This document shows, one piece after another, positions 15,441 through 30,096 of a stretch of DNA of 64,000 nt (its first letter is position 1; every line of letters begins with the position of its first letter). A program made the position numbers and the translations under genes. Under the pieces are notes generated by a model. It had not been told where the DNA came from. It made no database searches and saw only the letters and a list, made by a program, of their open reading frames with translations. This DNA is from an uncultured Actinomycetes bacterium (GTDB taxonomy: Bacteria > Actinomycetota > UBA4738 > JBBDTT01): NCBI GenBank assembly GCA_963742735.1, contig CAVUMN010000003.1, positions 32,001 through 96,000 of the forward strand, in the 5' to 3' direction.

Positions 15441-16943
15441 ATGCCCGATTCGCCTCGGGGGGTCCGCCCGCCGTCTGGAACGGACTCCGGCACATCCCAG
15501 GGCGGGCTACCCCCCCGAACCCCCCTCTGGGCCGGGCGGTTTGCGGCCGGCGGTCCATCCGAGGGCACGCTCGCCTTTTCCCGTTCGATCGGGTTCGACA
15601 TGCGGCTTGCGCCGTACGACGTGAAGGCGACGACGGCCCACGCGGAGGCGCTGCGGGAGGCGGGCGTCTTGAGCGACGACGAGACCGTCGCGATCACCGG
15701 CGCGCTGAAAGCCGTGGGCGCCGAGATCGCCGAGGGCAGCTTCGTCCTCGCCGACCACGACGAGGACGTGCACATGGCGATCGAGCGTGCGCTGATCGAG
15801 CGGCTCGGCGAGACGGGCGCGAAGATCCATGCGGCCCGCAGCCGCAACGACCTGGTGGCCACCGACTTCCGGCTGTGGACGATCGACGCGGCCCGCGCCC
15901 TCGCGTCGGCGGCCGCCGGGCTGGCGGAGGCCCTCGCCGAGCGCGGGGAGGAGCACCCGGACGCGATCCTCCCCGGATACACCCACCTCCAGCGGGCCCA
16001 GCCCGTCCTGCTCGCGCACCACCTGCTGGCCCACGCGTTCCCGCTCGTCCGGGACGCCGAGCGGCTGCTCCGGGCCGCGGAGACCGCGGCGGTCAGTCCG
16101 CTGGGCGCCGGGGCGCTCGCGGGATCGACCATCGAGCTGGCGACCGGCGCGACCGCGCGCCGTCTGGGCATGCCGGGGGCGTTCGACAACTCGATCGACG
16201 CGGTCTCGGACCGCGACTTCGCCCTGGAGTTCCTGGGGGCCGGGACCATCCTGGCCGTGCACCTGTCGCGGCTGGCCGAGGACCTGGTGCTGTGGGCGAC
16301 CGAGGAGTTCGGGTTCGCCCGGCCCGCGGACGCCGACGCGACGGGGTCGAGCATGATGCCCCAGAAGCGGAACCCCGACGTGGCCGAGCTCGTGCGGGGC
16401 AAGGCCGGCCGCGTCCTCGGGGCCCTCGTGTCCCTGGCCACGGCGATGAAGGGCCTCCCGCTGGCCTACGACCGCGACCTCCAGGAGGACAAGGAGCCGG
16501 CGTTCGACGCGTACGACACCCTCTCCGGCGGGCTGGAGGCCCTCGCGGCGATGGTCCGAGGGCTCACGTTCGACACCGAGCGCATGGCCGCGGCCGCGTC
16601 CGGCGGCTTCCTGCTGGCCACCGACCTCGCCGAGCATCTGGTGTCGAAGGGCATGCCCTTCCGCGACGCGCACCACCTGACCGGCACGATCGTGGCGGAG
16701 CTCGAGGCGACGGACCGGGCGTTCGACGACGTCGGCCCGGACGAGTGGGCCGGCTGGTCGCCGCTGCTCGGGCCCGAGGTGGCCGAGCTCCTGACGCCGG
16801 AGCGGGCCGTGCGCCGGCGGACCACGCCGGGTGGCACCTCGCCCGAGTCGGTGGCCGGGCAGCTCGTGGCGCTGCGGGCGCGGCTCGGCGACGTGCGCGA
16901 GCGGGCCGGCGAAGCGGGCACCTACACTGTGCCCCTTCGATGA
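15441..16943 (+). CDS. argH: Argininosuccinate lyase, with an N-terminal extension encoded by a palindromic element
   Basis: [64 protein letters not shown] 15441 after GGGAAGG. Confidence 0.93.
15456..15525 (-). repeat. 70-bp GC-rich palindromic element, copy 1 (inside the argH 5' end)
   Basis: Reverse complement matches 28490-28559 at 59/70 positions with no gaps (manual alignment). Confidence 0.9.
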
Positions 16944-18607
16944 CCGAGGACCTCCAGCACCGCAGCCGCGACGTCGTCACCCGGCCCCCGTCCCGGGCGA
17001 TGCTCCGCGCGGTCGGGTTCACCGACGAGGACTTCGGGCGCCCCCAGATCGGCGTCGCCTCGTCGTGGAACGAGGTCACCCCCTGCAACTACCACCTGGA
17101 CCGCCTGGCCGATGTCGCGAAGGAGGGCGCGCGGGAGGCCGGCGGCGTCCCGATCGAGTTCACGACGATCGCCGTCAGCGACGGCATCTCGATGGGGACC
17201 GAGGGGATGCGCGCGTCCTTGGTGTCCCGCGAGGTCATCGCGGACTCCGTCGAGCTCGTGATGCACGCCGAGCGCCTGGACGCCATGGTCACCATCGCCG
17301 GCTGCGACAAGAGCCTTCCGGGCATGGTCATGGCCGCCGCCCGCCTGGACCTGCCCACGGTCTTCGTCTACGGAGGCTCGATCCTTCCCGGCCATGTCCG
17401 GGGCCGGGACATCAACATCCAGGACGTCTTCGAGGCGGTCGGAGCGAACGCCGCCGGGCAGATGAGCGACGAGGAGCTCGACGAGATCGAGCGCAATGCG
17501 TGTCCCGGCCCGGGGTCGTGCGCGGGGATGTTCACCGCGAACACGATGGCGGCCGCGGTCGAAGCCCTGGGGATGTCGCTGCCCGGCAGCGCGTCCCCGC
17601 CGGCCGTCGACCCGCGCCGGGACGACTTCGCGCGCGCCAGCGGTGTGGCGGCGGTCCGCGCGCTGGAGGCGGGCGTCCGTCCGCGCCAGGTGATCACCCG
17701 TGACGCGCTGGAGAACGCGATCGCCGTGGTCATGGCGCTGGGGGGATCGACCAACGCGGTCCTGCACCTGCTGGCGATCGCCGTCGAGGCGGAGGCCGAG
17801 CTCGACATCGACGACTTCGACCGCATCGGCCGCCGCGTCCCGCACTTCGGCGACCTCCGCCCCTCCGGCCGTTTCGTAATGGCCGACCTGGACCGCGTCG
17901 GCGGCGTTCCGGTGGTCATGAAGGTCCTCCTGGACGCCGGGCTCCTGCACGGCGACGCCCTCACGGTGACCGGCAAGACGGTGGCGGAGAACCTGGCCGA
18001 GCTCGACCCCCCGGCACCCGACGGGGACGTCGTGCGCCCGTTCGACCAGCCGATCCACGCCGACGGCGGCCTGGCCATCTTCAAGGGCTCGCTGGCGCCG
18101 GAGGGCGCGGTCGGCAAGATCTCCGGCATGGACGGGACGACCTTCCGCGGCCGCGCCCGGGTGTTCGATCTCGAGGAGGATGCCTTCGACGCGGTGACCC
18201 ACGGCCGGATCGTGGCCGGCGACGTGATCGTCATCCGCCACGAGGGGCCGAAGGGCGGGCCGGGGATGCGCGAGATGCTCGCGGTGACGGCGGCGGTCGT
18301 CGGAGCGGGCCTGGGCCGCGACGTCGCGCTGGTCACCGACGGCCGATTCTCGGGGGCCACCCGCGGCTTCGCGATCGGCCACGTCGCGCCCGAGGCGGCG
18401 GTCGGCGGGCCGATCGCGCTGGTGGAGGAGGGCGATTCGATCGTCCTCGACGTCGACGGCCGCCGCCTCGACCTGGAAGTCGCCGACGAGGAGCTCGAAC
18501 GTCGCCGGGCCGGATGGAAGGCCCCCCAGCCGCGCTACACCCACGGCGCGCTGGCGAAGTACGCGCGGCTGGTCAGCAGCGCCTCCCGCGGCGCCGTCTG
18601 CGGCTAG
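16940..18607 (+). CDS. ilvD: Dihydroxy-acid dehydratase
   Basis: [75 protein letters not shown] overlap with argH. Confidence 0.96.
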
Positions 18608-28475: not shown

Positions 28476-30096
28476 CGGTGGCGTAGGCGGGGGGGTACGG
28501 GGGGGTAGCGCGCCCCAAGGTGCCCCGGAGTCCGTTCCGGAGAGCGGGCGGACCCCCCGTGAGCAGGATGTAGTCCGGTTCTTCGACACCACCCTGCGCG
28601 ACGGGGAGCAGGCGCCCGGCATCGCACTCTCCGGCGCCGAGAAGATCGAGATCGCGGAGCACCTGGCCCGACTCGGCGTCGACATCATCGAGGCCGGTTT
28701 CCCGGCGTCGAGCCAGGGGGACTTCGACGCGGTCGCGAAGATCGCCGACCAGGTGAAGGGCCCGACCATCGCCGCGCTGTGCCGGACGAACCACGACGAC
28801 GTCGATCGTGGCTGGGACGCGATCAAGGGAGCGGCGAAGGGCCGCCTGCACCTGTTCGTGTCCACGAGCGACGTGCACATGACCTCGATGCTGAAGATGG
28901 ACGCCGACCAGGTCCTGACCCTCACGCGGGAGACCGTCCGTCGCGCCGCCGGCTACACCGACGACGTGGAGTTCTCGGCCCAGGACGCCACCCGAACCGA
29001 CCCCGAGTTCATGCTCGAGGTGTTCCGCGTCGCCGTCGAGGAGGGCGCCACGACGATCAACGTGCCGGACACGGTCGGCTACGCCCTGCCCCACGAGTTC
29101 GGCGAGCTGGTACGCATGGTCCGCGAGGCCCTGCCCGAGCACGTGATCATCTCCACGCACTGTCACAACGACCTCGGGCTCGCCGTGGCGAACTCCATGG
29201 CCGGCGTCATGAACGGGGCGCGACAGGTGGAGGTCGCGGTCAACGGGATCGGCGAGCGCGCCGGCAACTGCTCGCTCGAGGAGGTCGCGATGATCGTGCA
29301 GACGCGCGGCCAGGCCCTCGGCCTCTCCCACAACCTGAACCTGAAGGAGATCGCCCGGACGTCGCGGCTGGTCAGCCTGTTGACCGGCTACGTCGTGCAG
29401 CCCAACAAGGCCGTGGTCGGCGCGAACGCGTTCGCCCACGAGTCGGGCATCCACCAGCACGGGGTGCTCATGAACCGCGCGACCTACGAGATCATGGACC
29501 CCGCCGAGATCGGGCTGGAGGGCTCCCGGATCGTATTGGGCAAGCATTCCGGGCGCCACGCGTTCTCCGACGCGCTGGCCAAGCTCGGCCTGGAGCTGGA
29601 CCGCGACGCGCTCGATCGCGCGTTCGCCCGGTTCAAGGACCTGGCCGACCGCAAGATCCAGCTGACCGACGCTGACCTCGAGGCGATCGTGGCCGAGGAG
29701 CTCGGCACGTCGGACCGCGACGGCTTCGTGATCGAGTCGCTCGCCGTCACCGGCGGGACGCACCTGTCGCCCACGGCCACGGTGCGTCTTCTCCGAGGAG
29801 GAGAGACGTTCGAGGACTCCGCCCTCGGAGACGGGATGATCGACGCCGCGTGCGGCGCCATCGCCCGCGCCACGGGCGTCGACGCCCGCCTGGTGAACTT
29901 CAATGTGTCGAGCGTGACCGGGGGATCGGACGCGTTGGGCGACGTCGTCATCCAGCTCGACGTCGACGGCAGGCTCGTGACCGGCCGCGGCGTGAGCAGC
30001 GATGTCGTGGAGGCCAGCGCCAGGGCCTACCTCTCCGCCATCAACCGAGCCCTCTCCGTCGAGGCGAACGACGCGGGCGAACGGGGCAGCCGATGA
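28468..30096 (+). CDS. leuA: 2-isopropylmalate synthase, with an N-terminal extension encoded by a palindromic element
   Basis: [59 protein letters not shown]-terminal regulatory domain. Confidence 0.95.
28490..28559 (+). repeat. 70-bp GC-rich palindromic element, copy 2 (inside the leuA 5' end)
   Basis: GGGGGGTACGGGGGGGTAGCGCGCC...CCGGAGTCCGTTCCGG...GCGGGCGGACCCCCCG; 59/70 identical to the reverse complement of 15456-15525. Confidence 0.9.

Follow-up and report, generated by a model that had tools for sequence, protein, structure and literature searches.

According to the account of Di Nocera et al. 2013 (PMC3733652), GTAG repetitive extragenic palindromes (REPs) are palindromes of 20-40 bp that occur in hundreds of copies, have a REP-associated tyrosine transposase (RAYT) as partner and are located mostly between co-directional or convergent genes; the word Actinobacteria does not occur in the main text of that paper. 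Mycobacterial interspersed repetitive units (MIRUs) are described in PMC12548453 as dispersed and tandem repeats at the junctions of operon genes, inserted at start codons and overlapping the reading frames with little harm to expression. For Rickettsia palindromic elements (RPEs), PMC10969869 gives a length of about 150 bp, an in-frame position in unrelated housekeeping genes, apparently as function-compatible fusions, and a conserved peptide per family, and ERIC, Correia/NEMIS, RUP and BOX are named as bacterial MITEs, miniature transposable elements with inverted repeats (PMC3733652, PMC10969869). Here we analyse a hairpin element of ~76 nt and about 80% G+C that is present twice in a 64-kb window (C3:32001-96000) of G000, the genome of an uncultured Actinomycetes bacterium, in the linker of an ArgG-ArgH reading frame and at the start of leuA. 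Our literature searches, made outside supplementary files, returned no description of this hairpin family, and we regard the family as new, though of a kind of small repeat that is well known in bacteria. It is probably a non-autonomous mobile hairpin of the REP/MITE/MIRU kind that is tolerated at operon junctions and translated as a passive by-product.

Judged by what these sources describe, the element resembles GTAG REPs as a GC-rich imperfect palindrome with GTAG 5′ of the stem, in its preference for co-directional and convergent junctions, in its occasional intragenic copies and in its patchy distribution. It differs from them in a hairpin of ~55 nt with a 29-nt loop, in the extra G-run and tail and in copy numbers in the tens, and a Y1/RAYT gene was not found in the genomes searched. 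With MIRUs, which are compared by description and not by sequence, it shares the host phylum, a similar size class and dispersed as well as tandem junction copies (75-78 nt period). MIRUs measure about 46-100 bp. A MIRU-like overlap of stop and start is seen only at the ThiS-TtuA copy (TGA over GTG), 11 of 25 upstream frames ending on the TAG of the element and the other copies being read through or intergenic; in contrast to MIRUs, the present family is defined by a covarying hairpin and inverted termini, and only some copies couple stop and start. As in the RPEs described, a palindromic repeat lies in frame in housekeeping genes, but in the present family different frames are used, no peptide is conserved and the majority of copies are located at gene boundaries. 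Like the MITEs named, the element is small and non-coding, has terminal inverted repeats, is presumably transcribed with its neighbours and varies patchily in copy number; unlike them, a parental insertion sequence was not found in our limited test, a target duplication accompanies one copy and 76 nt is at the small end of the range.

The two window copies, 15456-15525 (as reverse complement) and 28490-28559, are identical at 59 of 70 positions (84.3%) without gaps, which reproduces the match reported in a preliminary description of this DNA. BLASTN with either copy against the whole of G000 (five contigs, 3,082,211 bases, 71% G+C, 88.9% complete) yielded seven full-length matches, the next best having an E value of 0.039. 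A profile search of the 3.08-Mb genome with nhmmer recovered seven copies with E values from 5.8e-17 to 6.9e-14, followed only by matches at 5.4 and 7; the similarity is therefore far beyond chance, and the whole-genome count that the preliminary description had proposed as a check gives seven copies rather than two. Among each other, the G000 copies are 80-88% alike.

Evidence for mobility was obtained by comparison with G001, a congener of the same genus (61% complete). At all three G000 junctions that could be aligned, G001 lacks the element. Its leuA is shorter by 81 nt; its purA TGA overlaps the GTG of purD, a junction that is ~73 nt longer in G000; and the tail of a GT2 glycosyltransferase is 75 nt (25 codons) longer in G000, with an apparent stop at the equivalent TAG in both genomes. 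G001 also has no element in its ArgG-ArgH linker, which is too diverged for a base-exact empty site, and the ThiS site was not found in this 61% complete genome. The two copies of G001 itself both occupy sites that are empty in G000. One of them takes the place of the last codons of the upstream gene and abuts the Shine-Dalgarno sequence and GTG of the gene that follows; the other (on C153) has an 11-nt direct repeat on its two sides, of which the empty G000 site contains a single unit. None of the five alignable sites is common to both genomes. The preliminary description had read the element as a mobile REP/MITE-like family translated inside open frames and had suggested searching relatives for empty sites; with seven copies and these empty sites, the core of that reading holds.

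All copies follow the same plan, which consists of G6, TYC, G7, TAGC, an arm of 5-7 nt, a variable loop of ~29 nt, the complementary arm, GCGRA, C6 and a subfamily-specific tail of ~9 nt. The termini are inverted repeats, 5′ GGGGGGTYCG and 3′ CGRACCCCCC being reverse complements at 9-10 of 10 positions. G7 pairs with C6, the two runs spanning ~55-57 nt with an unpaired middle of ~29 nt, across a conserved 3 × 3 internal loop in which GTA (77 of 79 copies) stands opposite GGA (41) or GAA (33). This GTA occupies alignment columns 20-22 and is followed in column 23 by a paired G in 78 of 79 copies, which places GTAG 5′ of the stem. Arm pairs differ by subfamily (TCGCC/GGCGA, AGC/GCT, TGGCC/GGCCA and CCGCC/GGCGG, with CACGCC/GGCGTG within G000), and the loops differ completely, while the nucleotide termini and the base pairing are kept. 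Of 85 unique copies, 79 have an inner length (from TA to the 3′ G) of 40-43 nt, one has 37 nt and five are short forms with 16-18 nt. The short forms, found at L099, L102, L109, L110, L135 and L146, retain both termini and the stem; L109 and L135 represent the same site in two assemblies.

The hairpin was evaluated in an alignment of 79 rows, made up of the seven G000 copies and 72 unique copies from other genomes. Pairing was seen in 92.1% of cells, whereas shuffling left 82.3% and slid partners gave no more than 51.6%, and five of the seven inner-stem pairs show compensatory changes on both sides. Double changes were counted in 81 cells versus 25.9 +/- 3.6 in shuffled alignments (reached in none of 500 shuffles); as the rows are related, these cells stand for a handful of subfamily-level events rather than for 81 independent ones. 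The covariation score was 0.222, compared to 0.076 for shuffled and at most 0.058 for slid alignments. Folding energies relative to shuffled sequences gave z values of -3.0 and -1.7 for the G-rich strand and -1.3 and +0.5 for the other strand, a weak test because any sequence of 80% G+C folds well. The predicted hairpin is thus supported by covariation and not by folding energy. The long hairpin of the preliminary description is borne out in this way, its energy taken alone being weak, and the inner motif it named, GGAGTCCGTTCC, belongs only to the subfamily of G000. A structure computed with RNAalifold from the seven G000 copies had another pairing and zero covariation and was replaced by the structure of the wider family.

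The distribution of the element was determined in 41 genomes of the order (G000 included, hence 40 relatives) and in 294 genomes of the class. Related copies were detected by BLAST in 8 of the 41, and a scan with the 5′ motif, allowing at most one mismatch, was positive in 34 of the 294 genomes with 0 to 46 copies each; the reversed pattern, used as control, gave 4 hits. The copy numbers include 46 (G059), 35 (G027), 28 (G054), 25 (G284), 18 (G014), 17 (G046 and G055) and 7 (G012), and are 0 in most genomes. G006, G014, G027, G031, G039, G042, G059, G105, G106 and G292 are unpublished genomes; the copy numbers of G059, G027 and G014, the tandem arrays of G027, the shares of the order and class and the transposase tallies below rest partly on them, and the conclusions on G000 and G001 are independent of them. 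Scanning all public species genomes yielded at least 119 stretches, nearly all of them in metagenome-assembled genomes (MAGs) of uncultured Actinomycetota, and a handful of isolated motif matches in unrelated taxa probably arose by chance. Tandem arrays with a period of 75-78 nt occur in several relatives, often at contig ends, and were seen in the public-genome scan as well. Those at L096, L097, L139, L145, L167 and L171 and on contigs C25, C27, C43 and C44 of G027 lie at the extreme ends. The repeat probably breaks short-read assemblies, and since arrays sit at contig ends, the copy numbers are likely underestimates.

The genomic habitat was assessed for 79 loci or arrays, found with a pattern requiring TAGC, from the phase of G+C at third codon positions (GC3) in the 150-nt flanks, a heuristic applied to a set that includes kin. 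By this measure the element is co-directional with its neighbours at 33 loci and anti-directional at 11; a further 9 loci are convergent, 2 are divergent, and 24 were left unclassified. The 33 co-directional upstream frames stop before the element (8), on its TAG (11) or elsewhere inside it (2), or run through it (12). For the 25 co-directional downstream genes, the first candidate start lies 9-25 nt after the C-run in 14 cases and 29-58 nt in 6; no start is present within 60 nt in the remaining 5, leuA among them. With the downstream start usually 9-25 nt past the 3′ end, operon expression would be largely preserved.

Within G000, gene names at the copies were assigned from Pfam and six-frame readings and coding boundaries from the GC3 frame plot, in which all seven copies lie exactly between two coding regions and codon periodicity collapses inside the element. 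Four to five of the seven are contained in open frames and two are intergenic; insertions in frame were found in leuA, in the ArgG-ArgH linker and in the tails of the GT2 and ThiS-like proteins. All three forward frames and one reverse frame are used, and by Pfam limits every translated copy lies outside the domains. The argH copy is open in five of six frames, its sole stop being the forward-strand TAG, and the six-frame reading agrees with the earlier statement that both window copies are free of stops in two particular frames. The notion that the family colonises housekeeping proteins stands as far as translated copies exist; the usual habitat of the element is the co-directional or convergent gene junction, not the protein interior.

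Table 1. Copies of the element in G000 and genes at the two window copies. Positions without contig are those of the 64-kb window; E values are from the profile search.
Feature	Position	Strand	Remarks
Element copy 1	15446..15525 (core 15455-15525)	-	~9-nt tail GAGGCGAAT at low-coordinate end
Element copy 2	28490..28568 (core 28490-28560, then tail)	+	25 residues in leuA frame
ArgG-ArgH, single open frame	14034..16943	+	969 aa; Pfam: ArgG residues 60-445, ArgH 514-926 (Lyase_1 from 514)
Internal start for free ArgH	GGAAGG 15430-15435, ATG 15441-15443	+	5 codons upstream of element
ilvC (ketol-acid reductoisomerase)	27441..28475	+	TGA 28473-28475 overlaps leuA start region
leuA (2-isopropylmalate synthase)	28468..30096	+	ATG 28468 in ATGCCTGA context; HMGL-like domain from residue 36
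Copy 1, ArgG-ArgH	C3:47455-47525	-	E 5.8e-17
Copy 2, ilvC-leuA	C3:60490-60560	+	E 8.5e-16
Family copy	C3:926598-926667	-	Profile match
Family copy	C4:519577-519645	+	Profile match
Family copy	C4:225840-225911	-	Profile match
Copy 6, purA-purD	C4:994323-994395	+	Profile match
Family copy	C1:249407-249478	+	Profile match

At the ilvC-leuA junction, the element encodes LeuA residues ~8-34, wholly N-terminal to the HMGL-like domain. In G001 the junction reads ATG CCT GAC GG, ten bases and then GTAGTCCGGTTC, and MPDGPSDVVRF precedes LDTT; the corresponding stretch of G000 comprises 38 residues and is 81 nt (27 codons) longer. In a metagenome contig that stems from a relative and has 7 mismatches in 97 nt, 13 other letters connect 28475 with 28570, so that this junction is likewise 81 nt shorter. 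No sequencing run contained half of the window, and the contigs of two DNA and two RNA libraries did not cover the element itself, this junction being the one usable item among them. G000 LeuA thus almost certainly carries an in-frame insertion of 27 residues, as judged from these alignments. Across the order, leuA starts 6 to about 25 codons before the conserved LeuA motif, and in 10 of 21 relatives it starts as in G000, with ATG/GTG-CCT-GA overlapping the ilvC stop. Since this conserved start lies upstream of the insertion and no in-frame ATG, GTG or TTG follows before the motif, the insertion should be translated. The order-wide start codon confirms the N-terminal position in LeuA proposed earlier, and the proposed absence of an in-frame ATG, GTG or TTG between the copies and LWAGRF of ArgH or the conserved LeuA motif was confirmed as well. 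The 8-base start/stop overlap itself, ATGCCTGA or GTGCCTGA in those 10 of 21 relatives (L067-L087), represents a conserved translational-coupling junction. In Mycobacterium tuberculosis leuA carries an in-frame tandem repeat, a possible parallel.

The other window copy lies in a single frame that runs through ArgG and ArgH. argG has no stop codon of its own, the TGA at 15419-15421 belonging to another frame, and the element, read on the plus strand as 23 residues, encodes about residues 475-497 in the linker between the domains. It had been placed at the N-terminus of ArgH; it does follow an ATG by a few codons, but its actual position is the linker of the fused frame. ArgH would be translated through the element either way, as a fused ArgG-ArgH protein or as a product of the internal ATG. 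Continuation of the ArgG frame into ArgH without a stop was also observed in G001, G026, G029, G007, G004, G017 and G023, with a Pro/Ala-rich linker of ~50-60 residues, whereas the other 11 of 18 loci with the motif have a frame upstream of ArgH that is not a continuation of ArgG. The relatives with a fused frame (L041-L045, L049 and L057) come from several families of the order, and in other families the two genes are in different frames. Because seven relatives also run ArgG into ArgH, the fusion is apparently a lineage trait, and the element would have landed in its linker. An ArgG-ArgH fusion was not found in the literature among the matches listed.

Of the remaining G000 copies, copy 3 follows the C-terminal Gly-Gly of a ThiS-like protein, whose frame runs 28 residues through the element and ends on a TGA overlapping the GTG of a TtuA-like gene. 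Copy 4 is intergenic, nine bases past the stop of a cupredoxin gene; copy 5 forms the C-terminal tail of the GT2 glycosyltransferase and is read through to its stop; and copy 7 lies between divergently oriented GT2 and GT4 genes. At copy 6, purA lacks its own stop, and its frame continues across the element and is also that of purD, giving an open frame of 825 aa (L004 2400-2680), and the TAG of the family reads CAG.

Two side observations concern these neighbours. The ThiS/TtuB-like sulfur-carrier gene beside the TtuA-like gene (L001 2476-2762, minus strand) runs past its Gly-Gly, and a free C-terminal Gly-Gly would then need proteolytic processing; in relatives (L239 and L240), two extra residues are present at this C-terminus in G028 and an in-frame fusion to TtuA in G024. 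In purD, the frame changes after ...EEGTVYRG, where one extra base occurs in CGCGGGCGTCC (GGGC) context ~800 nt downstream of the purA-purD copy. This apparent indel, at L004 about 3370-3385 (G000 C4, about 995.2 kb), puts what follows of GARS_A and GARS_C into a different frame and might represent either a pseudogene or real frameshift or a single-base assembly error. Because the element itself consists of G/C runs and purD shows this indel, frame calls in G000 need read-level confirmation; those for leuA and GT2 are backed by agreement of the frame on both sides.

The distribution is patchy and comes in bursts, sites are reciprocally empty in the two congeners, the termini are inverted and the GTAG-tagged stem covaries; these features argue for a mobile hairpin. 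We propose that a selfish DNA hairpin of ~76 nt has spread within one uncultured class of Actinomycetota. Its GTAG-tagged inner stem would be recognised by a mobilising activity, probably as single-stranded DNA, and insertions would survive only at places where little harm results, namely in the few bases around stops, ribosome-binding sites and starts of gene-dense genomes. As the element is ~80% G+C and open in five of six frames, an insertion just inside a gene end would simply be translated if the frame is kept, as with 81 nt in leuA and 75 nt in the GT2 tail, and would add a peptide rich in Gly, Pro, Arg and Ser outside the folded domains. The forward TAG would often become the new stop of the upstream gene. 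Translation of the element looks like a by-product of very tight gene packing.

Several observations weigh against this reading. With 80-88% similarity among them, none of the G000 copies looks very recent. The flank scan revealed a clear target duplication at one of the eight scored solo copies of G000 and G001 (the other G001 copy being unscored), and flanking repeats of at least 6 nt were absent from the seven G000 copies, whose flanks have diverged. Separately, 12-nt flank "repeats" that the scan had offered as target duplications turned out to be tails of tandem arrays. PF01797 (Y1 transposase, RAYT family) was not found in the 88.9% complete G000, was present in only one of the 40 relatives (G012), on a contig without the element motif, and was missing from all five highest-copy genomes (18 to 46 copies, 81-94% complete); the same search was positive in 6 of 14 control genomes. 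The RAYT/IS200-IS605 partner for which the preliminary description had suggested a search was accordingly not recovered. MAGs often lack repeated mobile genes, so this negative result weakens the case for an enzyme encoded elsewhere without excluding it. In a limited test, no longer element bounded by the terminal motifs was seen in G000, in which only one forward/reverse pair of these motifs lies within 6 kb (5771 nt apart), and inverted pairs in G284 (C50) and G012 (C85) enclose ordinary housekeeping genes, those for YqeY, a phosphoesterase, GT4, YceG and shikimate dehydrogenase. Moreover, translation through the element is deduced from the sequence, and the apparent assembly indel may affect the frames through G/C runs, above all the purA-purD read-through and its CAG. 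Finally, selection on an RNA function, instead of pure parasitism, might underlie the orientation bias of 33:11 and the narrow range of loop lengths.

This last point leads to the alternative of a functional cis-acting RNA module, in which the hairpin would serve to stabilise the upstream mRNA or have it processed, to make translation pause or be insulated, or to couple cistrons, and would be kept by selection, mobility being only its route of arrival. The excess of convergent over divergent loci (9 to 2) is in line with it, as are the covarying stem, the nearly constant inner length and the position of the element, which follows a stop and precedes the ribosome-binding site or start of the downstream gene. 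Tails begin with the Shine-Dalgarno-like GAGG in three of the seven G000 copies, the purD ATG is preceded by GAGGTCGAA, and PMC3733652 states that extragenic REPs are for the most part found downstream of coding regions and that their transcription is plausible. Nevertheless, an RNA module kept by selection is difficult to reconcile with the absence of shared sites in G000 and G001, with bursts of up to 46 copies in a minority of genomes and with both orientations inside essential operons of G000. No U-tract, as expected of an intrinsic terminator, follows C6, the tails being of GAGG, GATC, GAAG or GGCA type and never a T-run. Rfam gave no match at gathering thresholds in the window and none at E<=1 in six loci, and ARAGORN found no tRNA-like gene in eight loci. 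Mismatches of the G.U and A.C types (20 versus 52) favour neither strand, since the A.C cells are mostly at positions that are unpaired in one subfamily and hence uninformative about the strand. The orientation counts are not independent, and strand-specific insertion could produce such a bias; we therefore consider the RNA module unlikely, though not to be neglected. A related idea, to which we give still less weight, is that of a mobile "operon punctuation" cassette, which would supply the forward TAG as a stop of its own, a structured stretch as spacer and, in some of the subfamilies, a tail resembling a Shine-Dalgarno sequence, would re-create termination and re-initiation at a stop/start junction and would spread without a dedicated RAYT-type transposase by means of another host or mobile enzyme. 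If this were true, the cassette would re-tune intercistronic expression, create new protein termini and fuse neighbours, as with purA and purD once the TAG has become CAG.

A classical RAYT-dependent GTAG REP, whose transposase gene is missing from the incomplete assemblies or was lost recently, appears very unlikely. The GTA-G found directly before the inner stem in 77 of 79 copies is the tag that defines GTAG REPs in PMC3733652, the extragenic co-directional and convergent location fits the description given there, and the same source reports that REPtrons are deleted in many strains, to which the tendency of MAGs to lose repeated mobile genes may be added. Opposed to this are the PF01797 results with their positive controls, the hairpin of ~55 nt with a 29-nt loop instead of 20-40 bp, and copies in tens, not hundreds. 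A peptide-encoding module selected at the protein level as a useful enzyme segment, in the manner of RPEs, might be suggested by the four to five G000 copies in open frames and by the argH and GT2-tail copies, which are read in the same reverse frame and give similar peptides, RGVR..LPPRTP. The use of three forward frames and one reverse frame largely refutes it, and the two intergenic copies, the position of the segments outside Pfam domains, the loops that differ wholly between subfamilies while termini and pairing persist and the loss of GC3 periodicity inside the element leave such a module hardly credible. Similarity by chance between G/C-rich stretches of low complexity, or an artefact of assembly, might be considered in a genome of 71% G+C with 1661 runs of G or C of at least 6 and at least one assembly indel. 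It is already refuted by seven copies with E<=7e-14 and nothing further up to E 5, by the same architecture in many independent assemblies with few hits of the reversed control, and by empty sites with clean flanks. The mobile hairpin tolerated at operon junctions consequently remains the reading that we prefer.

In-frame repeats in housekeeping genes are already known from RPEs, intragenic REPs and MIRUs, which limits the surprise of the present case. The element adds a well-delimited family of small repeats to a branch of the phylum known only from metagenomes, with unusually clean comparative evidence in the form of reciprocal empty sites between two congeners. It indicates that essential enzymes (LeuA, ArgG-ArgH and possibly PurA-PurD) can take up such repeats, apparently without being broken by them, and for the annotation of these MAGs it accounts for unusual extensions at N- and C-termini and for genes that look fused. 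As the family has apparently spread with no RAYT detectable, a complete genome from a high-copy lineage could reveal a mobiliser of GTAG-tagged hairpins outside the Proteobacteria-type REP systems.

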